64,000 bases of DNA from an uncultured Actinomycetes bacterium (GCA_963695975.1 CAVOIB010000002.1:589855-653854), one strand, 5' to 3'; counted from the stretch's first letter, positions 3,544-56,219 are shown. Program-made: numbers and translations. The notes: generated from the letters alone by a model not told the origin.

Positions 3544-5034
3544 ATGGAGCGGATCAGCCACTGGATCGGCGGCAAGACGGTGATCGGCGAGTCGGGACGG
3601 GTCGGACCGGTCTTCGATCCCGCAACGGGCCTCCAGACCCACGAGGTGGATCTGGCGAGCGTCGGAGAGGTCGATCGGGCCGTGGCGGCCGCTGCCGAGG
3701 CGTTCCCTGCCTGGCGGGCGACCTCCCTGGCGAAGCGTTCGGAGATCATGTTCAGGCTGCGCGAGCTGATCGACACGCATCGAGCGGACATCGCGAAGAT
3801 CCTCACGGCGCAGCACGGCAAGGTGCTTTCGGACGCGATGGGCGAGGTCGCCCGAGGCCTGGAGAACATCGAGTACGCGTGTGGCGTGCCGAACCTGCTG
3901 AAGGGCGGGTTCAGCGAACAAGTCTCGACCGGCGTGGACGTGTACTCGATCCGCCAGCCGCTCGGGGTCGTCGCCGGCATCACGCCGTTCAACTTCCCGG
4001 CGATGGTTCCTATGTGGATGTTCGCGAACGCGATCGCCTGCGGGAACACGTTCGTGTTGAAGCCCTCCGAGAAGGACCCCGGCGCCTCGATGGTCGTGGC
4101 GGAGCTCCTGTCGGAAGCGGGGGTGCCCGACGGTGTGTTCAACGTGGTCCACGGCGACAAGGTGGCGGTCGACGCGATCCTCGAGCACCCGACGATCGCG
4201 GCCGTGAGCTTCGTCGGCTCCACCCCGATCGCGAGATACATCTACGAGACCGGCACGAAGAACGGCAAGCGCGTGCAGGCACTCGGAGGCGCAAAGAACC
4301 ACATGATCGTGCTGCCGGACGCGGACGTGGAGATGGCAGCCGACGCCGCGGTCTCCGCGGGCTTCGGCTCCGCGGGTGAGCGCTGCATGGCGGTCTCGGT
4401 CCTGGTCGCGGTCGGAGACGTCGCCCAGCCGCTGGTCGACGCGATCGTCGAGCGTCTGTCGAAGATCAAGGTGGGTCCCGGGCACGACCCCGAATCGGAG
4501 ATGGGCCCGCTCGTCACAAGGGAGCATCGCGACAGGGTGGCGGGCTACCTCGACTCCGCGCGCGAGCAAGGCGCCAGGGTGATCGCCGACGGGCGCGAGC
4601 ACGAGTTGCACGGCGGCGTCGGCTTCTTCCTCGGCCTCTCGCTCATCGACCACGTTCGGCCAGAGATGGACTGCTACAAGGACGAGATCTTCGGCCCAGT
4701 GCTGTCGGTGGTCCGCGCTTCCTCCTACGACGAGGCGCTCGGCCTGGTGAACGACAACCCATACGGCAACGGCGTCGCGATCTTCACGCGCGACGGCGGC
4801 GCGGCGCGACAGTTCCAATTCGACGTACACGTGGGGATGGTCGGCGTGAACGTACCGATCCCCGTCCCGGTCGCGTACTACTCGTTCGGCGGGTGGAAGG
4901 CCTCGCTCTTCGGGGATCAGCACATGTACGGCCCGGACGGGATCGACTTCTACACGCGCGCCAAGGTGGTGACCGCGCGATGGCCCGATCCCGGGACCAG
5001 CCGCGTCGACCTCGGCTTCCCGAGGACTCGCTGA
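3544..5034 (+). CDS. mmsA: CoA-acylating methylmalonate-semialdehyde dehydrogenase
   Basis: Aldehyde dehydrogenase family, 496 aa. Motifs FNFPAMVPMWM, VLKPSEKDP, and catalytic GERCMA as in MmsA/IolA. Confidence 0.85.
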   Translation: MERISHWIGGKTVIGESGRVGPVFDPATGLQTHEVDLASVGEVDRAVAAAAEAFPAWRATSLAKRSEIMFRLRELIDTHRADIAKILTAQHGKVLSDAMGEVARGLENIEYACGVPNLLKGGFSEQVSTGVDVYSIRQPLGVVAGITPFNFPAMVPMWMFANAIACGNTFVLKPSEKDPGASMVVAELLSEAGVPDGVFNVVHGDKVAVDAILEHPTIAAVSFVGSTPIARYIYETGTKNGKRVQALGGAKNHMIVLPDADVEMAADAAVSAGFGSAGERCMAVSVLVAVGDVAQPLVDAIVERLSKIKVGPGHDPESEMGPLVTREHRDRVAGYLDSAREQGARVIADGREHELHGGVGFFLGLSLIDHVRPEMDCYKDEIFGPVLSVVRASSYDEALGLVNDNPYGNGVAIFTRDGGAARQFQFDVHVGMVGVNVPIPVPVAYYSFGGWKASLFGDQHMYGPDGIDFYTRAKVVTARWPDPGTSRVDLGFPRTR

Positions 5035-5489
5035 TGGCTGCCCTCGAGGAGCTTCTGGCGCGCGAAGAGCGGGCGTGGGCGTCGATGTGGGCACAGGTCG
5101 AGCGGGTTCCGGCCGATGACCGGACGCACGAGGGCGTGGTCGGGGATTGGTCGACCAAGGACGTCGTTTGGCACTGCGCCTACTGGGCTGGGTTCTGCGC
5201 CGAGCACCTGGACATCAAGCGCACCGGATCGTGGAGCGATCCGTTCGCGGGCGAATCCGACGAACACTGGGATCGCGTGAACCAGGAGATCGCCGACGCA
5301 TCGAAGGCGATGACGTGGGTCGAGGTGGAGGCCGGAGCGAAGACCGCACGCGACCGAGCCCGTGCGGCGCTCGCCGCGTTCGACGAGGTGGACGATGTCG
5401 CCGAGGGCTGGTTCGCGGATGAAACGTTCATCCACTACGACGAGCACGCGAAGCACCTCGGGGCGTTCGCCGACTCGCTCTCGGGTTGA
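5032..5489 (+). CDS. DinB / maleylpyruvate-isomerase-N-domain-like hypothetical protein
   Basis: ATG overlaps the mmsA stop (TGATG). WHCAYWAGFCAEHLD segment. The longer ORF 4893.. lies inside mmsA and was trimmed. Confidence 0.5.
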
Positions 5490-5494
5490 CGCCC

Positions 5495-6079
5495 CTAGGG
5501 ATCGAACCGCATGAACCAGATGTGCGGCCCGCCGAGCGGCGCGTCGTCGTGCAGCGTCAAACGGAACCCGAACCGCTCGTAGTACGCGACGTTCCCCGCG
5601 ACCCCCGTTTCGAGGAACGCGGGCAGACCGTCGTTCCGAGCGCGTTCCAGCCCGAGTTCCATCAGGCTCGCGCCGATCCCTTCACCCTGCCGCGCTGGCT
5701 CGACCCCGATCTGGTCCAGGTACCAGATCGGCTCGTCGGGGATCTCCGACTCGACCCAGTCCCAGAGCGCGTCGTGGATCAGACCGCCATCAGCTGAGAG
5801 CGCATGGAACGCCTCCTTGAGCCCTGCGTTCTGGTCGGCGAGGGCCGTCGCATCGTCCGGCCCCAGCCATGCTGCAGCTCCGGCCGCGTCACCCGCTTCC
5901 CACAGGACCCCGAGTCTCGCCCACTGATCGTCGATCAGTTCGAAGAACCGCCGGGTCCCGTCGCGATCCTCCGGTGCGATCGAGGCCGAGATCATCGGGT
6001 CGTCCGCGAACGCCCGGGCCATCATCGCCGCAATAGCGGGTGCCCGTTCATTCCGTACCTGCCGGATCTCGATCGTCAT
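5495..6079 (-). CDS. GNAT family N-acetyltransferase
   Basis: 194 aa. Acetyl-CoA-binding motif QIGVEPARQGEGIGASLME and C-terminal YERFGF. Confidence 0.75.
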   Translation of the reverse strand: MTIEIRQVRNERAPAIAAMMARAFADDPMISASIAPEDRDGTRRFFELIDDQWARLGVLWEAGDAAGAAAWLGPDDATALADQNAGLKEAFHALSADGGLIHDALWDWVESEIPDEPIWYLDQIGVEPARQGEGIGASLMELGLERARNDGLPAFLETGVAGNVAYYERFGFRLTLHDDAPLGGPHIWFMRFDP

Positions 6080-6161
6080 CCGGTCAGCCTAACTTCGGCG
6101 CTACCGGCTCGGGACCGGCGCGCCGTATCCTTGGCGCACCCGTCTTGAGGAGCACGCACAC

Positions 6162-7322
6162 ATGCAGACCGACCGAAGCCCGCTCGACCGCCTCCGTGAG
6201 GATCACGGTCCTTGGCACCCGCGCCCCACGCTCGAGGGCAGCGACTACACCAGCTGGGAGGTGTACGACCGCGAACGCGAACGGATCTGGTGGGGGGATT
6301 GGGTCTGTGCAGGCAGGACCGAGGAGGTCCCGAACCCCGGCGACTACATCGTTCGCGATATCGCCGGCGAGTCGATCTTCGTCGTCCGGACCGAGTCGAA
6401 TGAGCTTCGCGGCTTCTACAACGTGTGCAGCCACCGTGGCACGAAGTTCGTGGACGACATCGAGGGAACCGGCCACGTCCGTAAGGCGTTCGTGTGCCCG
6501 TACCACGGATGGACGTACGACCCGAACGGACAGCTGGTCGGCACGCCGAACGTGAAGGAGGACGAGCTCTTCGAGCGGTCGGCCTACCCGCTGCACGGCG
6601 TCACGGTCGAAAGCTACGCGGGTTTCCTGTTCGTGAACCTGTCGGGCGAGCCCCGGCCGTTGAGGGAGGCGCTCACCGACGGTGCCGAGTCGATCACGGT
6701 CTTCGAGCGCTTCAAGATGGACGAGCTCCGGATCGGTGTCCGTCTCGTGTACGAGGTCGAGGCCAACTGGAAGATCGTCGTGGAGAACTACAACGAGTGC
6801 CTGCACTGCCCGCAGATCCATCCGGAGCTCGTCCAGGTCGTGCCCCTGTTCCGCTTCGGCGAGGTCTGGGACGAAGAGCTCCGTGACGACGGCAACCGCA
6901 TGGTGGAGGGCGCCACGAGCTTCACGAAGACCGGCCGGTCGGAACTGCCGAAGCTCCCGGACCTCGCGCCCGAGGACTACGACATGTACTACGGGAGCTA
7001 CGAGTTCCCGAACCTGATGTTGAACCTCCACCCGGATTGCGGGATGTACTACATCGGCTATCCGAAGGCGCCGAACCACACGACGGTCGTGTCCGAATTC
7101 CTGTTCCGACCGGAGACGATCGCTGGGGCGGACTTCAACCCGGACCCTGTGGTCGAGCTGTGGGACCTGATCTCGAGGCAAGACTGGGATGTATGTGTCC
7201 GTGCGCAGACCGGGGTCGGGTCACGCGCGTTCAAGACGGGCGTCTTCCCGCGGCAGGATCGGTTCCTCTACTGGTTCAACGAAGAGTACCGGCTCGCGAT
7301 GGGCCGCGAGCCCCAGGGCTGA
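6162..7322 (+). CDS. Rieske [2Fe-2S] non-heme-iron oxygenase, alpha (catalytic) subunit
   Basis: Rieske ligands CSHRG...CPYHGW, then a mononuclear-iron catalytic domain, 386 aa. RBS GAGGAG. No beta-subunit or reductase gene is adjacent. Confidence 0.85.
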   Translation: MQTDRSPLDRLREDHGPWHPRPTLEGSDYTSWEVYDRERERIWWGDWVCAGRTEEVPNPGDYIVRDIAGESIFVVRTESNELRGFYNVCSHRGTKFVDDIEGTGHVRKAFVCPYHGWTYDPNGQLVGTPNVKEDELFERSAYPLHGVTVESYAGFLFVNLSGEPRPLREALTDGAESITVFERFKMDELRIGVRLVYEVEANWKIVVENYNECLHCPQIHPELVQVVPLFRFGEVWDEELRDDGNRMVEGATSFTKTGRSELPKLPDLAPEDYDMYYGSYEFPNLMLNLHPDCGMYYIGYPKAPNHTTVVSEFLFRPETIAGADFNPDPVVELWDLISRQDWDVCVRAQTGVGSRAFKTGVFPRQDRFLYWFNEEYRLAMGREPQG

Positions 7323-7323
7323 T

Positions 7324-8205
7324 GTGACCGGACGCTTCACCCTCATCGGTGTGCCCATCGACTCGGTCGGCCGGTCGGGTGGAACCGAGCACGGACCGGC
7401 GACCCTCCGCGACCTCGGCCTCGCGGAAGTGTGTGGCACCGATGCCGGGGATCTCGACGTCCGGATCCGAGGCGAGGAGCGTGACCCGGCGACCGGCATC
7501 GTCGGGAGCGCTGGTGTGTTGCGCACGACCGCGGCGATCCGGGATGCGGTCGCGGCCTCGCTCGCAGACGGTGCGAGTCCGTTCCTCGCGGGCGGGTGCT
7601 GCGCCGAGCTCCCGGGAGCCCTCGCGGGCGCGCGAGACGTCGTCGGTCGCGTCGGTGTCGCGTACCTCGACGGGCATCTGGATCTCTATGACGGGGTGAC
7701 CTCACCTACCGGGGAGGGGGCGGACATGCCGCTGTCCGTCGCGCTCGGGTTCGGCCCGGCCGCATGGGTGGACATGTGCGGCGGCGCCTCTGCTCGCCCC
7801 GAGGACGTGGTGCCGATCGGGTATCGCGACGCCGACGAGCTGCCGACGTTCGCGTCGCTCGCGCCGACGCTCGGTCCCGGGTTCGGGCCGATCTCGAAGG
7901 ACGAAGTTCAGGCGCAGGGTCCAGCCGCCGTGGGCGAACGCGTTGCCGTCTCCTTGGCCGCGTCGGCCGGCAACTACTGGCTGCACCTGGACGTCGACAT
8001 CCTCGGGGAAGACGTGTTCCCAGCGACGGACTACCTGATGCCCGATGGCCTGGACATGAGCGAGCTGGTGTCGCTGATGCGGCCGCTCGCGAGGTCGACT
8101 TCGCTGGTAGGCGTGTCGCTCGGGTGCTTCAATCCGGAGAAGGATTCCGGCGGCGCGTGCGGCCGCGCGCTCGTCAGCGCGTTCACCGAGGTATTCGGCG
8201 CCTAG
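7324..8205 (+). CDS. Arginase/agmatinase/formiminoglutamase-family ureohydrolase
   Basis: GTG start immediately after the Rieske stop. Mn-binding-like DGHLDLYD and LHLDVDIL segments. The longer track ORF 7189.. overlaps the Rieske gene and was trimmed. Confidence 0.7.
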   Translation: MTGRFTLIGVPIDSVGRSGGTEHGPATLRDLGLAEVCGTDAGDLDVRIRGEERDPATGIVGSAGVLRTTAAIRDAVAASLADGASPFLAGGCCAELPGALAGARDVVGRVGVAYLDGHLDLYDGVTSPTGEGADMPLSVALGFGPAAWVDMCGGASARPEDVVPIGYRDADELPTFASLAPTLGPGFGPISKDEVQAQGPAAVGERVAVSLAASAGNYWLHLDVDILGEDVFPATDYLMPDGLDMSELVSLMRPLARSTSLVGVSLGCFNPEKDSGGACGRALVSAFTEVFGA

Positions 8206-29664: not shown

Positions 29665-32103
29665 TCAGCCTTTGATGCGCTCACCCTTAGGGTCGTGGGG
29701 CGGTCCCGGGGCGACGACCGCGCCCACGCGCTCGCCGAATACGCTCACCTCGACGCGCGTTCCTGCGGCGGAGAGATCCGCTGGCAGGTAGGTGTGGGCG
29801 ATCGATCGGCCCACGGAATACCCGATCCCTCCCGACGTGATCCGTGAAACCACTTGGCCATCCACGAACACGGGCTCGTTCCCGAGCGCCACAGCGCGCG
29901 GATCGTCCAGGAGCATCGTGACCAGCCGGCGGGGCGGGGGTCCCGTCCCGCGCAGATGTTCCAACGCGGTACGACCGACGAAGTCCACGCCCTTGTCGAA
30001 GGCCACCGCGAACCCGAGGCCAGCCTCGAAGGGGGTGTCGTCCGGCGTGACGTCAGACCCCCAAGCCCGGTACCCCTTCTCGAGGCGGAGGGAATCGATC
30101 GCCCGGTAGCCGGCCGGGACCACCCCGTGTCCCGCTCCGGCCTGCAGGAGCACGTCCCACAACGTGGCTCCGTACTCGGTGGCGGGATAGAGCTCCCAAC
30201 CGAGCTCGCCCACGTACGTGACGCGCGCGGCTAGGCAGGGAACGTCGGCGACCATGATGTCGCGGGAGGTCAGGTATGGGAACCCGGCATCTGAGAGGTC
30301 GTCGTCGCAGACGCCGGTGAGCACGTCTCGGGCCCTCGGACCCCACAGACCGATGCAGGCGAGCGACGACGTGACCTCACGGATCTCGACGCCGCCCGGC
30401 TGGTCCCGCAGGCGAGTATTCAGCCATGCGAGGTCATGCGTTCCCGATCCGGTACCGGTGACGATGCGGAACCGGTCCTCGCTCAGGCGGGTCACCGTTA
30501 CGTCGGCCTGGATCCCTCCGCGACGATTCAGCATCTGCGTGTAGACGATGGACCCGACCGACCGATCCACGTTCCCCGCGCACACGCGCTGGAGGAACGC
30601 GATCGCACGTTCCCCCGTAACTTCGATCTTGGCGAAGCTCGTCTCGTCGAACAGCCCCACACGTTCTCGGGTCGCGAGATGCTCGGTCACGATCGCGGTC
30701 GACCAGTTCTCGCCCGCCCACCCACGCGGGCGCCGATCCTCGTACGCGGCGTCCTCGTTCGACCGGAACCAGTTCGCTCGCTCCCACCCCGACTTCTCGC
30801 CGAACTCGGCCCCGAGCGATCCGAGCCGCGCGTACGTGGGAGACATCTTGAGCGGGCGACCGGCGTGGCTCTCCTCGCCCGGGTACTTCACGTCGTAGTG
30901 GGTCGAGTAGATCTCGACGGCTCGCGCCAGGCAGTATCGGCGACTGCGGTAGTGGGGGCCGAACCGGCGAACGTCCATCTTGGTCAGATCCATCGAGGGT
31001 TCGCCCTCGACGATCCACTCCGCGGTATAGCGGCCGATGCCGGCCGCTCCCGTGATGCCGTGCGCGCAGAACCCCGCCGCGACGAACAGTCCGTCGACCT
31101 TCGTCTCACCCAAGATGAAGTCGTCGTCCGGAGTGAACGCCTCGGGCCCGTTGATGAACCGGTTGATCTCCGTCTCCTTGAGGGTCGGGATCAGATCGAA
31201 GGCTCCCTCGGCGATCGGCTCGAAGCGCTCCCACTTCTCCGCGAGCAGCCGGTCGTTGAAATCGGGCGGGATCGGTGTCTCGACGTGCCAGGGATCGGGG
31301 TTGCGCTCGTATCCGCCGACCAGCAGCCCGCCAACCTCTTCCCGGGCGTACACGAGATGGTCGGGATCCCGAAGCGTGGGGAAGTCGGGACGGGTCCCGT
31401 CGATCTGCCTGGTGATCAGGTACTGATGCTCCATCGGGACCACGGGGATGTTGACACCGGCCATCCGCCCGAGCTCGTTGGCCCAGATCCCCCCGGCGAT
31501 CACCACGTACTCCGCTTCCAGCGTCCCGTCGTCGGTCGCCACGCCGGTCACCCGGCCGTCCGACACGTCGATGCCGACGACGCGGACGCCGGTCCGGATG
31601 CGGGCTCCTCGGGCCCGCGCGCCGCTCGCGAACGCGTTGGTGAGTCCCGTCGGATCGAGGTAGCCGTCCGAGGGAACGAACGCGGCCCCGAGGATCCCCG
31701 ACGGATCGATCAGGGGGAACCGCTGGTGAGCATCTGCCGCCGAAACGATCTCGAGGGGCAGGCCGAACGTCTCCGCCCAGCCGGCCAGCCGGGCGAGCGC
31801 TTCGAGACGGTACTGGGACGACGCGAGGTGGAGGGTGCCCACCTGGCGCCACCCGGGGTCGACCCCCGTCTCGTCGAAGAGCTTGGGGTAGAGATCGACG
31901 CCGTACATCATCATCCGGGTGTGGCTGACCGAGTTCCGGAGTTGGGCCACGAGCCCGGCCGAATGGAACGTCGAGCCGCTGGTGAGCTGGGCCCGTTCCA
32001 CCAGCAGGACGTCGGTCCAACCCATGGCGGTCAGGTGATACGCGATGCTCGCTCCCGCCGCTCCGCCGCCGATGACGACCACGCGGGCTCGGTCGTCGGT
32101 CAT
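29665..32103 (-). CDS. Dimethylglycine/sarcosine oxidase-dehydrogenase-like protein (FAD DAO domain fused to GcvT aminomethyltransferase folate-binding domain)
   Basis: N-terminal VVVIGGGAAGASIAYHL, C-terminal GcvT-like domain, ~812 aa. ATG overlaps the upstream kinase stop (ATGA). Confidence 0.8.
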   Translation of the reverse strand: MTDDRARVVVIGGGAAGASIAYHLTAMGWTDVLLVERAQLTSGSTFHSAGLVAQLRNSVSHTRMMMYGVDLYPKLFDETGVDPGWRQVGTLHLASSQYRLEALARLAGWAETFGLPLEIVSAADAHQRFPLIDPSGILGAAFVPSDGYLDPTGLTNAFASGARARGARIRTGVRVVGIDVSDGRVTGVATDDGTLEAEYVVIAGGIWANELGRMAGVNIPVVPMEHQYLITRQIDGTRPDFPTLRDPDHLVYAREEVGGLLVGGYERNPDPWHVETPIPPDFNDRLLAEKWERFEPIAEGAFDLIPTLKETEINRFINGPEAFTPDDDFILGETKVDGLFVAAGFCAHGITGAAGIGRYTAEWIVEGEPSMDLTKMDVRRFGPHYRSRRYCLARAVEIYSTHYDVKYPGEESHAGRPLKMSPTYARLGSLGAEFGEKSGWERANWFRSNEDAAYEDRRPRGWAGENWSTAIVTEHLATRERVGLFDETSFAKIEVTGERAIAFLQRVCAGNVDRSVGSIVYTQMLNRRGGIQADVTVTRLSEDRFRIVTGTGSGTHDLAWLNTRLRDQPGGVEIREVTSSLACIGLWGPRARDVLTGVCDDDLSDAGFPYLTSRDIMVADVPCLAARVTYVGELGWELYPATEYGATLWDVLLQAGAGHGVVPAGYRAIDSLRLEKGYRAWGSDVTPDDTPFEAGLGFAVAFDKGVDFVGRTALEHLRGTGPPPRRLVTMLLDDPRAVALGNEPVFVDGQVVSRITSGGIGYSVGRSIAHTYLPADLSAAGTRVEVSVFGERVGAVVAPGPPHDPKGERIKG

Positions 32104-33026
32104 CCGCCGATCCCCTCCGCGGCCACGGCCAGCCACCGATCCACAGGACGTTCGGCCATCGCACGAGCGAGTCGGTCGAAGTGGTTGTCGGCGTACTCGA
32201 CGTAGTCGATATCCAGCGTGGAGAGTCCCTGCTGGGCCACTCCCCACATCGCCTCACGGAAGTCCGACATGATCCTCATCAGACCAAGCCTCGCGCGGTC
32301 GACCTCCGTCACCTCGCCGAAGTAGTGCTTAAGCATCCGCTCCTGCGCGTCCTCGGAGAGACCGTTGTTGATCGACAGGTTGCCCAGGTCGAAGAAGGGA
32401 TCGCCCATGCCGGCGTACTCGTAGTCCACGAGCCACAGTCGGCCTGTGTCCCGGATGAAGTTGGGCGCCAACAGGTCGTTGTGGCAGGGCCGGTCCTCCA
32501 TGGGCGAGGCCTTGAACGCCGTCTCGATGCGCTCCGCCACCGAGTGCGCTCGCGCGTACTCGGCCGGCACGGTCACACCGCGGTCCTCCGCGATGGCCCG
32601 GTACGACTCCTCGATGCGGAACGCGGAGAACGTCCAGGGGAGCTGGGGCCCTGCGTGGATCGCTCGCACGACGGCGACGGCGTCTCCGAGCGTCGGCTCG
32701 GACTCCAGTTCGCCCTCCGCCAGCGAGTTCCCCGGGACCCACTGCGTCACCAGACATCCGAGATCCGGCATGAAGGCGACGACCTCTGGGCCCACCCCGG
32801 CGTCAGCTGCCGCGGTCGCGGCCAGACGTTCCGTCGATCGGTCGATCCCTAGGAGCTGGGTCTCCTTGTCGGAGACCCGAACGAAGAACGCTCCGGCGTC
32901 GGTCTCGACCCTGAAGTTGCGGTTCGTGCGCCCCTCGGCGATCGGGGTGATGACCCGCCCGGAGCCGGCCAGTTCGGGCACAGCGTCCAGCGCGGCTCTG
33001 AGCGCGGGATCGACCTGCCCCTCCAC
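32100..33026 (-). CDS. Choline/ethanolamine-kinase / aminoglycoside-phosphotransferase-family protein
   Basis: Brenner motif HNDLLAPN and DYEYAGMGDPFFDLGN, 308 aa. Confidence 0.7.
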   Translation of the reverse strand: MEGQVDPALRAALDAVPELAGSGRVITPIAEGRTNRNFRVETDAGAFFVRVSDKETQLLGIDRSTERLAATAAADAGVGPEVVAFMPDLGCLVTQWVPGNSLAEGELESEPTLGDAVAVVRAIHAGPQLPWTFSAFRIEESYRAIAEDRGVTVPAEYARAHSVAERIETAFKASPMEDRPCHNDLLAPNFIRDTGRLWLVDYEYAGMGDPFFDLGNLSINNGLSEDAQERMLKHYFGEVTEVDRARLGLMRIMSDFREAMWGVAQQGLSTLDIDYVEYADNHFDRLARAMAERPVDRWLAVAAEGIGG

Positions 33027-33109
33027 GCGGCGGACGCTAGCCGCGAAGTTCGTTCCCGGTCAAGGATGAACGAACCTGATCGACCCCCCGCAAGAGCGGC
33101 GCGGGCTTG

Positions 33110-34453
33110 CTACGGGGGGCCTTGGATGTCCGTGATCGGGTCGAACTGGGGCGCTCCCGGCACGACGACTTCGAGCACGGTGGGGTCGGGGCCGGATCCC
33201 GGGATCTCCCGGAGCCGACGGACCGGAGAGAGCAACGGCGGCAGGACCGCGAACGTGTTCCCGATCGCGGCGATCCACAGCGTGGGTCGAAGGCCGATGG
33301 AGTTCCCGAGCGCTCCGCCGATGAGGGCCCCGAGAGGCATCGTGCCCCAGACCACGAACCGCATCGTGGCGTTCATCCGACCCAGCATGTCCTGCGGAGT
33401 GATCGCCTGCCGCAGGCTCACCTGGTTCACGTTGTAGATCACCGTGGCCAACCCATTCACGAAGCCGACCACGATGAACACGATGGTCGCATCCGACGCG
33501 GTCACGAGGGGATAGCCGAAGGTGAAAAGGGCGAACACGGCCATCGAGCCGATGATCGTCCATCCCACGCCGATCGATCGTGCCACGCGCTGCGATAAGA
33601 ACGCGCCGACGAGCAATCCGGAGTTGCCGATTGCGAATGCGAGCCCTAGCCGCCCTGGGTTCATGTCCAAGGAGCGGACCGCGAACAGCACCAGGATCGC
33701 CATGATCATCGAGAAGAACAGGTTCGAGATCGAGGTGGCGGCAGCGATCGGCCGAAGGAGCGGATGCCGAAGGACGTAGCGCAGCCCTTCGCCGATCTGG
33801 CGGCGCATCGCTCCGCGCTCGCGATCGACGCGTTCGGGTGGTTGTTCCTTCACCCGGATCCGCCAGATGAAAAGGGCCGAGCCCAGGTATGAGATCGCGT
33901 CGATCGAGATGGCGAACGGGGCCCGCACCAGCTCGACGAGGATCCCGGCGAGCCCAGGTCCCGCGAGCTGCGCCGCAGATCGGCTGATCTCGAGTTTCGC
34001 GTTCCCCTCGGTGAGTCGCGGCCGCGCCACCAAGGATGGCAGGAACGATTGGTACGCCACGTCGAAGAAGACCGTGCACATCCCGACGATGAACGCGACG
34101 ATGACGAGTTGGACCATCGAGAGCACGTCGAACGCGGCTGCGAGCGGGATCGTTGCCAGCGCCACCGCTCTGCCGAGATCTCCGGCGATGAGGATCGGGC
34201 GGCGCGAGAGACGATCGACCCAGACCCCGGCCGGGAGCCCGATCAACAAGAACGGCGCGAACTCGACGCTCGTGAGCACACCCAGCTGGAACGGGGTCGC
34301 GTCGAGCAACAGGATCGCGGTGAGCGGTAGGGCGAGGAACGTCACCTGCGTGCCCAGCTGGCTGATGCTCTCCGCGGTCCACAGCTTCATGAAGTCGCGA
34401 TGGCGCCACAGCGACGGCGCGCTGCGATCGCTGTTCGTCAGTGCTTGACCCAA
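33110..34453 (-). CDS. MFS transporter (EntS-like)
   Basis: Twelve TM segments, 447 aa. Confidence 0.8.
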   Translation of the reverse strand: MGQALTNSDRSAPSLWRHRDFMKLWTAESISQLGTQVTFLALPLTAILLLDATPFQLGVLTSVEFAPFLLIGLPAGVWVDRLSRRPILIAGDLGRAVALATIPLAAAFDVLSMVQLVIVAFIVGMCTVFFDVAYQSFLPSLVARPRLTEGNAKLEISRSAAQLAGPGLAGILVELVRAPFAISIDAISYLGSALFIWRIRVKEQPPERVDRERGAMRRQIGEGLRYVLRHPLLRPIAAATSISNLFFSMIMAILVLFAVRSLDMNPGRLGLAFAIGNSGLLVGAFLSQRVARSIGVGWTIIGSMAVFALFTFGYPLVTASDATIVFIVVGFVNGLATVIYNVNQVSLRQAITPQDMLGRMNATMRFVVWGTMPLGALIGGALGNSIGLRPTLWIAAIGNTFAVLPPLLSPVRRLREIPGSGPDPTVLEVVVPGAPQFDPITDIQGPP

Positions 34454-34796: not shown

Positions 34797-35121
34797 GATG
34801 CGGTACGAATTCGAGCGAGACGGAACGGTCGTCGCGAGCGTGCTGTGGGAAGGACCCGGCCAGGTGTCCGTCGAGGCCGCGGAGCCATCGGTGCGCGCGG
34901 TCGTCGACCGATACCTGTCGTCCGAGGTCGTCTATCTGGGCTCCGGGTTCGACTTCGGCGACGATCAACAGGACGACGTGCTGCAGATGCGCAGGCGCGA
35001 CTGGACGCCGTGGGAGTTCGAGCGCGCGTGCCGCAACCTGTCGCACCGGTTGTCCGCGACCGTTCGCCGCGTGGAAACCGGTCCCGTTGAGGCGCGCACC
35101 GAGGAGGTGGCCGCGGGATGA
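34797..35121 (+). CDS. Hypothetical 107-aa protein, first ORF of the ilvBNC operon
   Basis: Strong RBS GGAGAGGAG. Stop overlaps the ilvB ATG (ATGA). High GC3. No recognisable family. Confidence 0.55.
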
Positions 35122-36866
35122 AGGTAACCGGCGCCCAGGCGCTGTTCAGATCCCTCGAGGGCGAGGGTGTCGACATCGTGTTCGGCATCCCCGGAGGGGC
35201 GATCCTGCCCGCCTACGACCCGCTCATCGACTCGAGCGTGCGGCACGTGCTCTGCCGCCACGAGCAGGGAGCCGGACACGCCGCTGAGGGCTACGCCTGG
35301 GCCACGGGCAAGGTCGGTGTGGCCATGGCCACCTCGGGCCCGGGAGGCTGCAACCTGGTGACCGCGCTCGCCGACGCGAAGATGGACTCGGTGCCGATGG
35401 TCGCCATCACCGGCCAGGTCCCCACGCCGGTCGTCGGGAACGACGCGTTCCAAGAGGCCGACATCACCGGCATCACGATGCCGATCACCAAGCACAACAT
35501 CCTGGTCACCGACCCTGGCGACATCGCCGAGGCGATCCGCGAGGCCTTCCATATCGCGCGCACCGGTCGTCCCGGCCCGGTCCTCGTCGACCTCCCGAAG
35601 GACGTGCTCGTCAACGAGACGAACTGGAAGTGGCCCGAGAGCGTGAGCCTCCCCGGCTACAAGCCCACGACCAAGGGCAACCTGCGCCAGGTGGCCGAGG
35701 CGGCGAAGCTGATCCTCAAGGCCAAGCGCCCGGTGCTCTACGTGGGCGGCGGCGTGATCAAAGCGGAGGCCACGAAGGAGTTGATGACGCTCGCCACCCT
35801 CGGACATCTGCCGGTCGTCACGACGCTGATGGCACGCGGCGCGTTCCCAGACTCGAACGAGCTTTGCCTCGGCATGCCGGGGATGCACGGCAACTACACC
35901 GCGGTCACGGCCATGCAGAAGGCCGACCTGCTGGTAGCGCTCGGCGCGCGGTTCGATGATCGGGTCACCGGCAAGCTGGACGCGTTCGCGCCGGATGCGA
36001 CCGTGATCCACGTGGACATCGACCCGGCGGAGATCGGGAAGAACCGCGTGGCCGAGGTCCCGATCGTGGGTGACTGCAAGGACGTGATCGCGAAGCTCAC
36101 GGCAGAGCTCGCGAAGCGTCAGGACGAGGGGGGTGGCGTGCCGGACCGGAAGGCCTGGCTCGGGCAGCTCGCCGAGTGGAGGACGACGTACCCGTACCGG
36201 TACGACCAGCAGCCGGACGGTCCGCTGTTGCCGCAGTTCTGCATCGAGCGCCTCTACGAGGCGGCCGGCAGCGACACGATCGTCGTCTCCGGCGTGGGTC
36301 AGCACCAGATGTGGGCCTCGCAGTTCTGGCACTTCGAGCAGCCGCGACACTGGATCAACTCGGGCGGCTTGGGCACGATGGGCTTCGCCGTGCCCGCGGC
36401 GCTCGGCGCAGCGGCCGGTCAGCCGAAGAAGCGCGTGATCGCGATCGACGGCGACGGGTGCTTCCAGATGACGGCGCAGGAGCTCGCCACCTCGACCACC
36501 GAGAACATCCCGTTCGTCACGGCGATCATCAACAACGCCTACCTGGGGATGGTGCGGCAGTGGCAGGAGCTGTTCTACAACGAGCGCTACAGCCAGGTCT
36601 ACCTCTCTTACGACACGCCCGACTACGTGAAGCTGGCCGAGGCGTATGGCTGCGTCGGCCTGCGGGCCGAGCATCCTGACGAGGTCGACGCCGTGATCGA
36701 GAAGGCGCTGTCGGTCTCCGACCGCAGCGTGGTGATCGACTTCCGGGTTGACTCGAACGAGATGTGCTTCCCGATGGTGCCGGCAGGCGCGTCGAACGAC
36801 GACATCATCGTCGGCCCGGAGGGCCTGAAGCCGGCCAAGGACCCGGCGGAGGCACCCATCGCATGA
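35118..36866 (+). CDS. ilvB: Acetolactate synthase large subunit
   Basis: ThDP-enzyme signatures (GIPGGAILP; [16 protein letters not shown]...IDGDG), 582 aa. Confidence 0.9.
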
Positions 36867-37423
36867 GCCTCCACACGCTGTCCGTCCTCGTCGAAGACCG
36901 GCCGGGAGTCCTGACGCGGGTGGCGGGGTTGTTCGCGGCGCGTGGGTTCAACATCGACTCGCTCGCCGTGGGGGCGACTGAGAACCCGGGCATGTCGCGC
37001 ATGACGATCGTCGTGAACGTGGACAAGAAGCCCTTGGAGCAGGTCACCAAGCAGCTCAACAAGTTGATCCACGTGATCAAGATCCTGGAGCATGAGCCCT
37101 CCGAGACGGTTGAGCGCGAGCTGATGCTGGTCAAGGTCCGTGCGGAGGGCGAGACTCGGGCGCGGGTCCTGGAGTTCTGTCAGGTGTTCAGGGTTCGTGT
37201 CTCGGATGCGACGCACCAGACGCTCACGATCGAGGCGACGGGTTCTCCCGACAAGCTCTCCGCGCTGCTCGACCTCTTGGACGACTTCGGGATCGTTGAG
37301 TTAGCGCGCACGGGGCGCATCGCGCTCACGCGCGGCGACCGCGGGATCCGCGAGCGCGCGCTGAAGTCCACCCGGGCGGCGGGTGCCGAGGATCAACCGG
37401 ATTGGGACGGCGGCGGGGTGTGA
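36863..37423 (+). CDS. ilvN: Acetolactate synthase small (regulatory) subunit
   Basis: ACT domain [33 protein letters not shown]. Start overlaps the ilvB stop (ATGA). Confidence 0.85.
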
Positions 37424-37431
37424 AGCGGGTT

Positions 37432-37450
37432 CTAGTCTGAGATGGACTAG
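37432..37450. repeat. Palindrome CTAGTCTG-AGA-TGGACTAG (copy 2 of 3)
   Basis: In the 64-nt ilvN-ilvC intergenic spacer, 9 nt after the ilvN stop. Confidence 0.55.
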
Positions 37451-37487
37451 CACGACGGGCGAACGACCCAGGAGGGACGACGGAGCG

Positions 37488-38504
37488 ATGGCAACGATCT
37501 ACTACGAGAAGGACACCGATCCCAGCGCGTTGAAGGATCAGAAGATCGCGATCCTCGGGTTCGGCAGTCAGGGGCACGCCCACGCGCTGAACCTGCGCGA
37601 CTCGGGCCACGACGTGCGCGTCGGGCTCCGCGCGGGCTCGTCGTCCCGCCCGAAGACCGAGGAGACGGGGCTGCGTGTCCTGGATACCGCCGACGCCGTC
37701 CGCGAGGCCGACGTCATCATGGTCGTGGTCCCCGATACCTCGCAGGCGAAGGTCTACCGTGAGGACATCGAGCCGAACCTGGAGCCCGGCAACATGCTGA
37801 TGTTCGCGCACGGGTTCAACATCCGGTTCGAGACGATCGCGCCGCCCGAGGGCATCGACGTCACCATGATCGCCCCGAAGGGTCCCGGCCACTTGGTGCG
37901 GCGGACCTACGAGCAGGGGATCGGAACGCCGGCGTTGATCGCCGTCCACCAGGATGCGACGGGCAACGCAAAGGCGCGCGCGCTCGCGTACGCGCACGGG
38001 ATCGGCGCCGCCCGTGCCGGCGTCCTCGAGACCACGTTCAAAGAGGAGACCGAGACCGACCTGTTCGGTGAGCAAGCCGTGCTCTGTGGCGGAGCGTCCG
38101 CGCTCGTCCAAGCGGGGTTCGAGACGCTCGTCGCGGCCGGGTACCAGCCGGAGATCGCCTATTTCGAATGCCTGCACGAGCTGAAGTTGATCGTCGACCT
38201 GATCTACGAGGGCGGCCTTTCGTGGATGCGCTACTCGATCTCCGATACGGCTGAATACGGTGACTACACGCGTGGGCCGCGCGTGGTGAGCGACGAGACG
38301 CGCGCCGAGATGCGCCGGATCCTGGACGAGATCCAGGACGGCCGGTTCGCGAAGGAATGGATCGGCGAGGCCGAGGGCGGGTTCGACACCTTCCTCCGAC
38401 TTAGGAGCGAGGCGCGGACGTCCCAGCTCGAGGATGTGGGACGGGGACTGCGCCAGATGATGCCCTGGTTGGAGTCCGAGACGAAGGTGGTTCCCGATGA
38501 CTGA
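37488..38504 (+). CDS. ilvC: Ketol-acid reductoisomerase
   Basis: NADPH-binding [15 protein letters not shown], class I KARI, 338 aa. RBS GGAGGGA. Confidence 0.9.
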
Positions 38505-40059
38505 CGGCAACGTAGGCGATATAGACCCAGGCAACGACATCAGGATCTTCGACACGACCCTGCGGGACGGGGAGCAGGCTCCCGGGATCGCGCTCACGCG
38601 GGCGGAGAAGGTCGAGATCGCCGAGCAGCTCGCCCGGTTGAACGTCGACATCCTGGAGGCCGGGTTCCCGGTCTCTTCCGACGGGGAGTTCGATGCGGTC
38701 TCCGAGATCGCGTCCAGCGTGAAGGGCCCGGTGATCGCGGCGCTCGCGCGGACGACCGAGGGAGATATCCGCCGCGCGGCGGAAGCATTGAAGGGCGCCG
38801 AACGGTGGCGGATCCATACGTTCATCTCGACGAGCCAGATCCACATGCAGGACATGCTCCGCATGTCGCACCAACAGGTGCTGGACGCGATCCGGGACAA
38901 CGTCAAGCTCGCGGTCGGCTACACGGAGGACGTGGAGTTCAGCGCGCAGGACGCGACGCGGACCGAGCTCGACTTCCTGCTGGAGTGCTTCAGGGTCGCG
39001 GTCGATTGCGGCGCAACGACGATCAACGTTCCGGACACGGTGGGGTACGCAACGCCGACCGAGTTCGGGGAGTTGGTGCGGATCGTTCGCGAGGCTGCGC
39101 CCGACCACGTCGTGATATCGACGCACTGCCACAACGACCTCGGCTTGGCCGTGGCGAACTCGCTCGCGGGGATCGAGAACGGCGCGCGTCAGGTGGAGGT
39201 CGCGGTGAACGGGATCGGCGAGCGCGCGGGGAACTGCTCGCTCGAGGAGATCGCGATGATCGTACGCACGCGCGGACAGGCGCTCGGGGTGCGACACGAC
39301 CTGAACATCAAGGAGATCGTGCGCACCTCGCGCCTCGTGTCTATGACTACCGGCTACGGCGTCCAGCCGAACAAGGCGGTGGTCGGCGCCAGCGCGTTCG
39401 CGCACGAGAGCGGCATCCATCAGCACGGGGTGCTGAGCAACGCCGCCACCTACGAGATCATGGATCCGCTCGAGATCGGCTTGGAAGGCAACCGCCTGGT
39501 CCTCGGCAAACATAGCGGGAGGCACGCGTTCGTCGACGCGCTGGACAAGCTGGGGCTCGCTGTTGACCCCGAACACGTGGACCGTGCGTTCGCACGGTTC
39601 AAGGACCTGGCCGACCGCAAGATCCAGATCACCGATCAGGACCTGGAGGCCATCGTTGGCGAGGAGCGCGGCGCCACAGAGGAGGGCCTTCTCGTGCTCG
39701 AATCGCTCCAGGTGGGCGGGGGAACTCATCTCTCGCCGAGCGCGACGGTCCGGCTCCGCCGGGGCGAGGAACTGATCGAGGAGTCGGCGTTCGGCGACGG
39801 CATGATCGACGCCGCGTGCGGGGCGATCCAGCGCGCCGCCGGTGTGGACGCTCGGCTCATCATGTTCAACGTCTCGTCGGTGACCGGCGGCTCCGACGCG
39901 CTCGGCGATGTGGTCGTCCAGCTCGACGTCGACGGCCGGCGCGTGACGGGTCGCGGTGTGTCGGTCGACGTGGTGGAGGCGAGCGCGCGCGCGTACCTCG
40001 CCGCGATCAACCGAGCTCTGCAGGTCTCGTCCGGCCGTGACGACGAGGTCCGTCCGTGA
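38497..40059 (+). CDS. leuA: 2-isopropylmalate synthase
   Basis: HMGL-like TIM barrel ([10 protein letters not shown]; [13 protein letters not shown]) plus a C-terminal LeuA dimerisation/regulatory domain, 520 aa. Start overlaps the ilvC stop. Confidence 0.85.
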
Positions 40060-41111
40060 CATACAGGATCGGGGTCATCCCCGGCGACGGGACCGGCCCC
40101 GAGGTCGTTCGCGAAGGGCTGAAGGTGCTCGACGCCGTCAAGGGCGTGGAGGGCTTCGACGTCGAGCTGGTCGAGTTCGACCTGGGCGGCGAGCGCTACC
40201 TGCGGACGGGGGACACGCTCCCCGACGACGAGCTCGCCCGGCTCCGTGAGATGCACGCCCTATTGCTGGGCGCCGTGGGGCATCCGGACGTCAGGCCGGG
40301 GATCCTGGAGCGGGAGCTGTTGCTGCGCGCACGGTTCGAGCTTGACCAGTACGTGAACCTCCGGCCGGTGATCCGCTACCCGGGCGTCGAGACGCTCGTG
40401 CCGTCACACACGGAGGACGACGTGAACATGGTGGTCGTCCGCGAGAACAGTGAGGGCCTCTACAGCGGGGCGGGCGGGTTCCACCGCAAGGGCACTCCCC
40501 ATGAGGTCGCCGTGCAGGAGTCGATCAACACCCGCCACGGCGTGGAGCGGATCGTCCGCTACGCGTTCGAACTCGCGATGCGCCCGGAGCGCCGCCGGAA
40601 GCTCACGCTCGTTCACAAGACGAACGTACTGACGTTCGCCGGCGATCTGTACCAGCGCGTGGTGGACGAGGTCGCCGCTGAATATCCGGAGGTGACGGCC
40701 GACTATGCGCACGTCGACGCCGCGTGCATCTACTTCCTGGATCAGCCGAGCCGGTTCGACGTGATCGTCACCGATAACATCTTCGGGGACATCATCACGG
40801 ACCTCGGAGCGATGATCCAGGGCGGCATGGGGGTCGCGGCCGGCGGCAACATCAACCCCGACGGCGTGAGCATGTTCGAGCCGATCGGCGGAACGGCGCC
40901 CGACCACGCCGGGAAGGCCACGATCAACCCGCTCGCGGCGATCGGCGCTGTTCGGCTGCTGCTGCTGCAGCTCGGCGAGGCGAATGCCGCCGGGCGCATC
41001 GACACGGGCATCCGGTTCGCGGCGTCGAAGATGTCGTCGATGCGGGCCGGTGAGATGGGGTACTCGACCCCGGAGGTCGGCGATCTCGTGGTGGAGGGAG
41101 CGACGGGATGA
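40056..41111 (+). CDS. leuB: 3-isopropylmalate dehydrogenase
   Basis: Isocitrate/IPM dehydrogenase signature NLFGDIITDLGA. GTG start overlaps the leuA stop. Confidence 0.9.
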   Translation: MTYRIGVIPGDGTGPEVVREGLKVLDAVKGVEGFDVELVEFDLGGERYLRTGDTLPDDELARLREMHALLLGAVGHPDVRPGILERELLLRARFELDQYVNLRPVIRYPGVETLVPSHTEDDVNMVVVRENSEGLYSGAGGFHRKGTPHEVAVQESINTRHGVERIVRYAFELAMRPERRRKLTLVHKTNVLTFAGDLYQRVVDEVAAEYPEVTADYAHVDAACIYFLDQPSRFDVIVTDNIFGDIITDLGAMIQGGMGVAAGGNINPDGVSMFEPIGGTAPDHAGKATINPLAAIGAVRLLLLQLGEANAAGRIDTGIRFAASKMSSMRAGEMGYSTPEVGDLVVEGATG

Positions 41112-55214: not shown

Positions 55215-56219
55215 ATGGCGTACAAGCGGATCTTGTTCGGCACCGATGGTTCGGCGTCCGCCCGGGCCGCTGGCGCGGTCGCCGCAGCTCTTGCGAAGGC
55301 AGGCAAGGCGCAACTGATCGTTGCGTGCGCGTTCGCCAAACCGACCGACGCGGAACGCGTGGTCGCCGCCGGCGTCGAGGAGGCGGAGGCGGCCGGTGTC
55401 CGCCGGGTCGAGGGGGAGAGCCGCGCCGGCCTCCCGGCCGACGCGTTGATCCAACTTTCGGACGAGCGCGATGTCGGATTGCTGGTCGTCTCGGGCGGCA
55501 GCGGCGGCAAGGGGCTCGGATCGGTGGCGAATCGGCTCGCCTTGCGTTCTCCTCGAGACGTCCTTCTGGTGATCGGCTCGGCGTCGACGGACGCGGATGC
55601 GCCGGTCTATCGACGGGTGGTGATCGCGACCGACGGTTCATCCACGGCGGATCGCGCCGCGCGCAAGGGATACGAGCTCGCCGAGACGCTAGGCGTGCCG
55701 GTCACGATCGTCTTCGTCGGGCACCCGAAGACGGGCGAGCTCGTGACGCAGGACACGATCGCGACGTATGCGGGTGAGGTGCCGACCGACGTGATGCTCC
55801 GAGAGGGACAGCCTGCGGCGCAGATCCTGGCGGCCGCCGACGAGGCGGACGCGGGCGTGGTGGTCGTCGGGAACAAGGGGATGACGGGCGCCAAGGGATT
55901 CCTGCTCGGATCCGTGCCGCAAGAGGTGGCCGAGGGATCCACCCGAGACGTGCTGATCGCCCGCACGGTCACGCAGATCGTCTCCGATCTCTCGCGGGGT
56001 GAGGGTGGGATCGTCGAGCGCGCAGGCGAGAAGATGGCCGTCTTCGTCGACGATGCTGGTGAACTCCACGTGATGAGCGCGCGCTGCACGCACATGGGAT
56101 GCACGGTCGCATGGAACCCGGGGGAAGGGACGTTCGATTGTCCCTGTCACGGGTCGCGGTTCGGCCCGATTGGCGATGTCGTGAACGGCCCGGCGGCGCG
56201 TCAGCTTCCGCCCGCCTGA
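55215..56219 (+). CDS. Tandem universal-stress-protein (UspA) domains fused to a C-terminal Rieske [2Fe-2S] domain
   Basis: Two Usp ATP-binding folds (VVVGNKGMTGAKGFLLGSV). C-terminal box I CTHMGC and box II CPCHGS. Confidence 0.7.
   Translation: MAYKRILFGTDGSASARAAGAVAAALAKAGKAQLIVACAFAKPTDAERVVAAGVEEAEAAGVRRVEGESRAGLPADALIQLSDERDVGLLVVSGGSGGKGLGSVANRLALRSPRDVLLVIGSASTDADAPVYRRVVIATDGSSTADRAARKGYELAETLGVPVTIVFVGHPKTGELVTQDTIATYAGEVPTDVMLREGQPAAQILAAADEADAGVVVVGNKGMTGAKGFLLGSVPQEVAEGSTRDVLIARTVTQIVSDLSRGEGGIVERAGEKMAVFVDDAGELHVMSARCTHMGCTVAWNPGEGTFDCPCHGSRFGPIGDVVNGPAARQLPPA

Follow-up and report, generated by a model that had tools for sequence, protein, structure and literature searches.

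In a 64,000-nucleotide stretch of DNA from an uncultured Actinomycetes bacterium (GCA_963695975.1 CAVOIB010000002.1:589855-653854; the whole of it is the window below), a gene for a Rieske oxygenase alpha subunit is followed, after a single nucleotide, by a gene for an arginase-family protein that we name ArgL. Comparing this locus with its relatives, we find that the Rieske-ArgL pairing is real and selected within one lineage and that it is not general to either family. Judged from sequence, the oxygenase is a putative stand-alone, beta-less Group V (CntA/GbcA/Stc2-type) Rieske enzyme of a new and deep lineage, and ArgL a predicted non-canonical ureohydrolase belonging to a large, still unnamed branch of the arginase family that carries the Cys variant, both of them outside any characterised orthologous group. 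We tentatively propose that the two enzymes, together with a dimethylglycine oxidase (DMGO)-like enzyme encoded beside them in sister genomes, are interchangeable parallel entry steps of one N-methyl/amidino catabolic module that leads to one small amino acid.

The Rieske-ArgL junction and its conservation

The window has 67% G+C, with third-codon-position G+C (GC3) above 0.8 in coding frames. The initial annotation had put the oxygenase stop one nucleotide before the GTG start of the arginase-family gene, and this is confirmed, since the TGA and the in-frame GTG lie at the positions given in Table 1; a GGG sits 6-8 nucleotides 5' of that GTG, and the ArgL stop codon overlaps the stop of a convergent ribokinase-like gene. 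Scans for terminators and for sigma-70 promoter consensus found none, an inverted-repeat search of the GNAT/Rieske intergenic region gave nothing useful, and Rfam returned no riboswitch (guanidine riboswitches included) or other RNA at gathering thresholds across the whole window, with only noise at 5900-6400. The two genes are best read as one translationally coupled transcription unit standing at the end of a nitrogen-compound catabolic island in this uncultured soil actinomycete.

To place this junction among its relatives, we scanned 185,579 species-representative genomes with an ArgL alignment, which yielded 525 relatives, and took gene neighbourhoods from the best 80 loci, with neighbours typed by BLAST (loci are given as L numbers). 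Nearly all of these 80 come from uncultured soil Actinomycetota (Actinomycetes, Thermoleophilia), joined by one Rhodospirillaceae and one Chloroflexia. Throughout the closer clade (33 loci, ArgL 57-76% identical), ArgL always lies in an operon with a Rieske gene and/or a DMGO-like gene, in one of four gene orders: Rieske-ArgL, as in the window (L001, L004-L013); Rieske-DMGO-like-ArgL (L016, L020, L022, L024, L027, L030, L032, L033, L052); Rieske-ArgL-DMGO-like (L054, L056); and DMGO-like-ArgL with no Rieske gene within 8 kb (L002/L017, L029). The junction sequence GGGCTGAnGTG recurs with its 1-nucleotide spacing in L005, L007 and L009-L011, a gap of 1 nucleotide being counted in six loci besides the window, and the coupling is kept in looser form elsewhere, with a Rieske-ArgL gap of 2 nucleotides in L008, 10 in L001/L013 and 16 in L054/L056, while DMGO-like and ArgL genes overlap by 4 nucleotides in seven loci. 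Because the 1-nucleotide spacing recurs in sister genomes, the Rieske-ArgL junction is not a chance adjacency.

A reciprocal metagenome scan with the Rieske alignment gave 80 loci, 65 of them (64-91% identity) with room downstream. Here the DMGO-like gene follows the Rieske gene without ArgL in 5 of the 65, the arrangement of L102, L111, L120 and L152, whereas L002 and L029 have the DMGO-like gene and ArgL without a Rieske gene. Such independent loss of genes across loci fits parallel entry steps.

Class and active sites of the two proteins

A Rieske oxygenase of the GbcA/CntA/Stc2 single-component type, with no beta subunit, ferredoxin or reductase nearby, had been proposed in the initial annotation, and both parts of that proposal stand. 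Pfam and NCBIfam scans of nearly all long, high-GC3 open reading frames in the 64-kb window detected neither an oxygenase beta subunit nor a ferredoxin or FNR-type reductase; the sole other Rieske domain there belongs to a universal-stress-protein fusion 48 kb from the oxygenase gene. Across about 110 related loci, no beta-subunit gene adjoins the oxygenase homologues and no reductase or ferredoxin was found beside them, and the metagenomic loci of close Rieske homologues contained no reductase at all (0).

Structure matches, motif and tree agree on the class. Against solved structures (PDB), CntA scored best (1.7e-42), then Stc2 (7.7e-34), with the best aromatic dioxygenase alpha subunit at 3e-28. 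The best NCBIfam model was GbcA (NF058607; 8.5e-53), but at 179.3 bits against a cutoff of 670 and with partial coverage, so that the window oxygenase is not a GbcA orthologue. The Rieske-cluster ligands C89, H91, C112 and H115 are invariant in 12 oxygenase homologues, and the catalytic-iron motif (Table 1) aligns with N-Y203-M-E205-C206-Y-H208-C209-G-P-A-H213 of CntA. We assign Group V features to the protein because its bridging Glu212, its Cys pair C213/C216 and its iron-binding H215 and H220 fall opposite E205, C206/C209, H208 and H213 in that alignment; D341, in an invariant RQDWD, is the probable third iron ligand and falls outside the stretch aligned to CntA.

Group V Rieske enzymes are recognised by a bridging glutamate, two iron histidines and a Cys-x-x-Cys pair, their known substrates are quaternary amines, and they divide by the residue at CntA position 203, Tyr or Phe marking clade Va (CntA, choline monooxygenases and OxyBAC, which cleave C-N bonds or oxidise choline) and Asn marking clade Vb (GbcA, BmoA and Stc2, which N-demethylate) (Quareshy et al.; PMC7948474, PMC10952381). 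The window oxygenase has Tyr210 here and so carries the clade Va signature; among 120 oxygenase homologues the residue is Tyr in 119 and Phe in one, and it is Tyr in YeaW and Asn in Stc2. In a neighbour-joining tree of eight taxa, built with no bootstrap and without GbcA, choline monooxygenase or OxyBAC sequences, the window oxygenase paired with a Priestia plasmid protein, with YeaW/CntA as sister and then Stc2, and it did not cluster with the classical aromatic dioxygenases NdoB and AndAc, which fell outside.

The ArgL gene product had initially been called an agmatinase/arginase-family hydrolase, of which the arginase family and fold hold: it scores 76.2 bits with Pfam Arginase (PF00491; gathering score 22), and its AlphaFold2 model (pLDDT, the predicted local distance difference test, 90) matches Bacillus arginases in Foldseek with template-modelling scores of 0.85-0.88. 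It lies nearer true arginases than agmatinases, however, with the ArgL family profile reaching 3.7e-55 for the arginase of B. caldovelox, 2e-23 for DcsB and 1e-14 to 1e-20 for agmatinases and guanidino-acid hydrolases, and it fails the RocF equivalog (TIGR01229) at 59.5 bits against a cutoff of 227.6.

Aligned with three arginases by HMMER (rat numbering, with H101, D124, H126, D128, D232 and D234 as the six Mn ligands), ArgL shows an altered active site. Loss of the Mn-binding residues had been named at the outset as a finding that would refute the initial reading of the pair; one of the six is lost, His101 being replaced by Cys93, and five are kept (D116, H118, D120, D223, D225). The general acid/base His141 and the guanidinium-binding Glu277 are replaced as well (Table 1), all three arginases agreeing that their SGNxHGMP corresponds to T-G-E131-G-A133-D134-M-P in ArgL, and at the alpha-carboxylate-binding sites Asn130 has become Tyr and Asn139 Glu. 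Such a site can still be that of an amidinohydrolase, given the precedent of DcsB, in which a Cys reportedly ligates the MnA metal in place of His and a general-acid His is said to be missing.

These changes are a property of the family. Cys93 and the five retained ligands are invariant in alignments of 18 and of 30 members, and across hundreds of family sequences the TSPTGE and DxD motifs do not vary, so that the ArgL active site can be called conserved and ArgL is probably an active enzyme. In a library of representatives at 50% identity, 126 clusters matched at E < 1e-30, putting the family at no fewer than that number of clusters besides the 525 relatives above, mostly from soil Actinomycetota. 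About 100 cluster representatives show GGDC[ST] or GGCC[AST] in nearly all full-length members, and Ala where arginase has His141; at the Glu277 position the wider family varies (C/D/I/L).

Table 1. Genes and sequence features of the window, with strand and basis of assignment.
Feature	Position	Strand	Basis
CoA-acylating methylmalonate/malonate-semialdehyde dehydrogenase	3544..5034	+	TIGR01722, 730 bits (cutoff 448)
DinB/DUF1706-like gene	5034..5489	+	start overlaps dehydrogenase stop (TGATG, 5032-5036)
GNAT acetyltransferase, divergent	5495..6079	-	Pfam
Rieske oxygenase alpha-subunit gene, 386 amino acids, ATG start	6162..7322	+	Pfam Rieske 2.1e-18, Ring_hydroxyl_A 1.7e-39
Rieske [2Fe-2S] ligands C89-x-H91...C112-x-x-H115 (CSHRG...CPYH, residues 89-115)	6426..6506	+	sequence reading
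Catalytic-iron motif N209-Y210-N211-E212-C213-L214-H215-C216-P-Q-I-H220 (residues 209-220)	6786..6821	+	alignment to CntA
Gene junction: AGGG, TGA stop (7320-7322), 1 nucleotide, GTG start (7324-7326)	7315..7326	+	sequence reading
Arginase-family gene ArgL, 293 amino acids, GTG start	7324..8205	+	Pfam Arginase 3.7e-21, 76.2 bits
G90-G91-C92-C93-A94 replacing arginase GGDHS; Cys93 at position of MnA ligand His101	7591..7605	+	HMMER alignments, three arginases
D116-G-H118-L-D120 (arginase DAHxD); three metal ligands kept, invariant	7669..7683	+	alignment
T-S-P-T-G-E131-G-A133-D134-M-P loop; Ala133 at position of general acid/base His141	7699..7731	+	alignment
L-D223-V-D225-I-L (arginase DxDxxDP); two metal ligands kept	7987..8004	+	alignment
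G-C268-F-N-P-E-K-D; Cys268 at position of guanidinium-binding Glu277	8122..8145	+	alignment
DMGO-like gene, DAO-FAO_M-GCV_T-GCV_T_C	29665..32103	-	domain scan
APH/choline-kinase-like gene, precedes DMGO-like gene with 4-nucleotide overlap	32100..33026	-	domain scan
Major facilitator superfamily (MFS) transporter, also preceding the DMGO-like gene	33110..34453	-	domain scan
Universal-stress-protein domains with C-terminal PetC-like Rieske [2Fe-2S] fusion	55215..56219	+	domain scan

Explanations for the pairing

Under the proposal that we tentatively prefer, the oxygenase would be a beta-less, probably alpha3, Group V monooxygenase that draws electrons from a reductase or ferredoxin encoded elsewhere and passes them from the Rieske cluster (C89, H91, C112, H115) by way of the bridging Glu212 to a mononuclear iron bound by H215, H220 and probably D341. 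Its substrate would be a small cationic nitrogen compound of trimethylammonium/betaine type, held by a cation-pi contact with Tyr210, and hydroxylation of a C-H adjoining the nitrogen would then either release a methyl group as formaldehyde or release the amine and leave an aldehyde. ArgL would act as an arginase-fold, binuclear-metal amidinohydrolase with a DcsB-like site (Cys93 for the MnA His, no general-acid His), releasing the amidino (guanidino) group in the form of urea or a substituted urea. A further interchangeable entry step would come from the DMGO-like FAD/folate N-demethylase that sister genomes encode. The model case would run from glycine betaine through dimethylglycine and sarcosine to glycine, with a second feed in which creatine or guanidinoacetate yields sarcosine or glycine plus urea. 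A beta-alanine version of the module, suggested by the malonate-semialdehyde dehydrogenase, an aminotransferase/alanine dehydrogenase pair and a nucleoside hydrolase, is equally possible, though not established; it would account for the semialdehyde dehydrogenase and the aminotransferase.

Parallel entry fits because each gene is gained or lost independently and four gene orders exist; that the three enzymes take consecutive steps on one molecule appears less likely. Several observations nonetheless weigh against our proposal. It does not explain why the oxygenase has Tyr210, a residue that marks the C-N-cleaving/choline clade Va and not the demethylase clade Vb, or why ArgL has a Cys in place of the guanidinium-binding Glu277 of arginase. 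The commonest neighbour of this Rieske family is a malonate-semialdehyde-type dehydrogenase, which points to an aldehyde product rather than to demethylation. Domain and Rfam scans of the window turned up neither a transporter or urease nor a reductase or riboswitch that names a substrate. Nor is the association general, with 47 of the 80 ArgL loci (54-63% identity, Thermoleophilia and others) having no demethylase nearby and no consistent partner among their neighbours, which include short-chain dehydrogenases/reductases, a glyoxalase, a glutathione S-transferase, a metallo-beta-lactamase-fold protein and a zinc-dependent alcohol dehydrogenase. Because of these 47 loci, the Rieske-ArgL link is lineage-restricted and could be partly inherited synteny. 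From the Rieske side, ArgL lies in the operon in only about 9 of the 65 metagenomic loci with room downstream, 45 of which have other neighbours.

Somewhat doubtful, but next in line, is the explanation that ArgL is simply the arginase or agmatinase of this phylum, acting on arginine-like substrates and co-regulated with the oxygenase for nitrogen scavenging without any shared pathway. The closeness of the ArgL profile to bacterial arginases is what this would predict, as are the lone ArgL genes of Thermoleophilia and the many unrelated catabolic genes in the surrounding island. Distant family members of GGDC type lie in an arginine-biosynthesis cluster (L171) and between obg and proB/proA (L174), and others lie among amine and polyamine-transporter genes (L169, L173); because these members sit among arginine, proline and polyamine genes, it can be argued that the substrates of the family are guanidino compounds that resemble arginine or bear an amine. 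Against such a housekeeping role stand the tight translational coupling retained across all four gene orders, the replacement of arginine-binding Asn130, Asn139 and Glu277 by Tyr, Glu and Cys, and the failed RocF equivalog score.

The reading offered with the initial annotation, that the pair oxidises and then de-amidinates a guanidino or betaine-like substrate, would, for a single guanidino molecule, follow the logic of DcsA and DcsB, and we consider it unlikely. The Rieske or DMGO-like enzyme would hydroxylate a guanidino N-H or N-methyl, and ArgL would then hydrolyse the resulting N-hydroxy- or N-hydroxymethylguanidine to a (substituted) urea and an amine. Consistent with this, both ArgL and DcsB carry a Cys in their equivalent of GGDHS and have no His141, DcsB itself acts behind a partner oxygenase, ArgL in its clade is always coupled to an oxidising enzyme, and a planar guanidinium cation could stack on Tyr210. 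Hydroxylated methylguanidine, moreover, is N-(hydroxymethyl)guanidine, a hemiaminal that is stable and calls for a second enzyme (PMC12508155). The known Group V substrates are quaternary amines, however, and a flavin amine oxidase is an improbable oxidant of a guanidine N-methyl; ArgL is absent beside most Rieske homologues and has been lost from some Rieske-DMGO-like loci, lies far closer to arginases than to DcsB by profile, lacks the Glu277 equivalent that DcsB keeps, and has no guanidine riboswitch near it in the window. The same idea can be widened to the whole family, with the Cys-for-His ArgL proteins as amidinohydrolases for N-modified guanidines (N-methyl, N-hydroxymethyl, N-hydroxy), wired here to a Group V Rieske and/or DMGO-like oxidase as an 'oxidise, then de-amidinate' route. 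This is a long shot; were it true, with creatine, methylarginines and methylguanidine as candidate substrates, the route would be previously undescribed and would extend Group V chemistry from quaternary amines to guanidinium substrates.

Improbable, in our estimation, is that ArgL is no ureohydrolase, and that it either performs another hydrolysis with another metal at a thiolate site or serves as a non-catalytic or regulatory partner. Of the catalytic positions of arginase three are altered, Mn(II) seldom accepts Cys ligands, and metformin hydrolase, whose structure is among the ArgL fold matches, includes non-catalytic ureohydrolase-fold subunits; yet hundreds of sequences are invariant in the five ligands, in Cys93 and in both the TSPTGE and the DxD motif, and DcsB is active with a site that aligns as comparable. 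Scarcely credible is the view that the oxygenase belongs to the ordinary aromatic ring-hydroxylating dioxygenases, as an alpha subunit with its beta subunit and electron carriers encoded elsewhere: homologues are annotated 'aromatic ring-hydroxylating dioxygenase subunit alpha' and there are weak hidden Markov model matches to BenA, AndAc and HcaE, but the CntA, GbcA and Stc2 matches are far stronger, the bridging residue is Glu not Asp, the Group V Cys pair is present, the tree places the protein inside Group V, and the roughly 110 related loci have no adjoining beta-subunit gene.

All of the chemistry proposed here has known precedents, and the Rieske-ArgL linkage is lineage-restricted, so the interest of the locus lies in what its parts would add. 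Group V Rieske oxygenases control the breakdown of betaine, carnitine and choline; to our knowledge few have been characterised, and none from Actinomycetota, and the present oxygenase lineage is abundant in soil metagenomes without a linked reductase. For a thiolate in place of a canonical manganese ligand we know of no case other than DcsB, and the metal and substrate of the ArgL family, once defined, would widen the chemistry of the ureohydrolase fold. Together they could reveal how soil bacteria mineralise methylated and guanidino nitrogen compounds (betaines, creatine, methylguanidines). If the pair is an ordinary betaine oxygenase beside an ordinary arginase, the gain is better annotation only.

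Genomic neighbours and comparison with known systems

The genes flanking the pair recur with it to different degrees. The semialdehyde dehydrogenase, the family's commonest neighbour, lies upstream in most loci of types A-C and is immediately next to the Rieske gene in L161-L163 and L166, and homologues of the DinB-like gene are found at the corresponding place in L001 and L002; the dehydrogenase and DinB-like pair accompanies the Rieske gene in many genomes. The divergent GNAT gene, reported in the initial annotation and present as stated, is another frequent partner, lying upstream of the Rieske gene also in L008, L024, L027, L030 and L087 and kept beside it despite the absence of ArgL in L103, L113, L141, L143, L147 and L148. 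Further plus-strand genes upstream in the window encode an IclR regulator, a CysK-like enzyme and an acyl-CoA dehydrogenase, and downstream lie genes for the ribokinase-like protein, a nucleoside hydrolase, a BetI-type TetR regulator, a CrtO-like flavoprotein and an ADP-forming acyl-CoA synthetase. Genes seen in sister actinobacterial loci besides these encode a class-III aminotransferase, alanine dehydrogenase, flavin amine oxidases, a PotF-like binding protein and a beta-lactamase-fold hydrolase.

The DMGO-like gene of the window was likewise found where it had been reported, 22 kb away, and the link drawn between it and the pair survives in part: sister genomes carry such a gene in the same operon, while the window copy is only a 42%-identical paralogue in another context. 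We considered it as the absent member of the window operon and rejected it, since it is 42% identical to the operonic form and belongs to a separate operon. That operon (29665-34453, minus strand) is an unusual combination of kinase and N-demethylase.

Some loci hold other candidates beside the two families. A conserved gene of about 412 amino acids without a Pfam match overlaps the Rieske 3' end on the same strand in L134, L135 (3103-4341, for example), L142, L145 and L151, and may be an alternative Rieske partner. In L020 (3825-5467) and L022 (4225-5454) the Rieske and DMGO-like genes are separated by a gene for a beta-lactamase-fold serine hydrolase, joined in L020 by a YidB-like gene. In L169/L173 (4595-12087), a DAO-family gene overlaps a GGDC-type arginase-like gene. 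The flanking genes encode a class-III aminotransferase, a flavin amine oxidase and a PotABCD-like ABC transporter, and the locus is a candidate operon for guanidino-amine catabolism in another actinobacterial lineage. A thiol- or formaldehyde-detoxification role for the ArgL of Thermoleophilia was considered and dropped, as the neighbours gave it no support.

Elsewhere in the window, a second candidate guanidino-modifying enzyme is a 282-residue protein of the arginine deiminase/amidinotransferase superfamily with sub-threshold matches to dimethylargininase (DDAH) (56988-57836, minus strand). Three further features are a run of ilvB-ilvN-ilvC followed by two LeuA-like synthases flanking an isopropylmalate dehydrogenase (35118-42682, plus strand), a PAS-GGDEF-EAL protein (43973-47161, minus strand) and a large NAD-specific glutamate dehydrogenase cut off by the end of the window (59937-63998, plus strand).

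Our literature search on a Rieske gene paired with an arginase, creatine or guanidinoacetase gene, or alternating with a DMGO-like gene, found nothing relevant; the comparison here is with the separate parts. The oxygenase resembles the clade Va enzymes CntA and YeaW in having no beta subunit, a bridging Glu, the E-C-x-H-C pair and a Tyr at the Y203 cation-pi position, but it is only 27% identical to YeaW and has no CntB/YeaX-type reductase or BCCT transporter adjoining it; the CntA pocket matches in part, with Y225 becoming Phe232 and the remaining pocket residues not alignable. Both genes have an aldehyde dehydrogenase neighbour, that of CntA lying in the Acinetobacter operon. An Acinetobacter plasmid protein tried as the CntA reference proved to be without the E-C-x-H-C motif, and E. 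coli YeaW was used in its place. With the clade Vb enzymes GbcA, BmoA and Stc2 the window oxygenase shares architecture and ligands, and its relatives adjoin a DMGO-like next-step enzyme, whereas these enzymes have Asn in place of Tyr at the CntA-203 position and the window gene has no adjoining GbcB/Stc4-type reductase.

Among annotated proteins, the homologue closest to the oxygenase (36% identity, with Phe at the 203 position) is encoded on a Priestia megaterium plasmid (NZ_CP071467), in a cluster of a DMGO-like FAD oxidoreductase, solA, the Rieske gene, a BCCT transporter, an FAD reductase and gcvP that has a betaine-to-glycine layout. This uncharacterised cluster is like the sister operons in its Rieske and DMGO-like partnership, and two GNAT genes flank it; its DMGO-like protein is 33% identical to that of the window. 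It differs in having no arginase-family gene and in having a transporter and a candidate reductase, both absent from the window. The dimethylglycine oxidase/sarcosine dehydrogenase family itself is represented with the same architecture in the sister ArgL operons, with the 4-nucleotide ArgL overlap, and is absent from the window operon.

Among arginases, the RocF enzymes of B. caldovelox and Thermus are nearest to ArgL by profile and fold, and ArgL keeps their GxRxxD/E motif; from them it differs at the five positions described above (His101 to Cys, His141 to Ala, Glu277 to Cys, Asn130 to Tyr, Asn139 to Glu). DcsB, the N-omega-hydroxy-L-arginine amidinohydrolase of D-cycloserine biosynthesis (PDB 6LUG), likewise has the arginase fold, and its NNTCS corresponds to GGCCA of ArgL, with a Cys in the GGDHS-equivalent motif of both in a register uncertain by one residue, while its TTDTGYLGGM and the TSPTGEGADM of ArgL both lack a His141 counterpart. 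The sequence relation between the two is weak (43 bits, 1.9e-10, below six arginases), so that they are not orthologous, and they part at the Glu277 equivalent. In the D-cycloserine pathway DcsB works on the product of its partner oxygenase, a haem enzyme of a biosynthetic cluster, whereas the partner of ArgL is a Rieske enzyme and its cluster a catabolic one.

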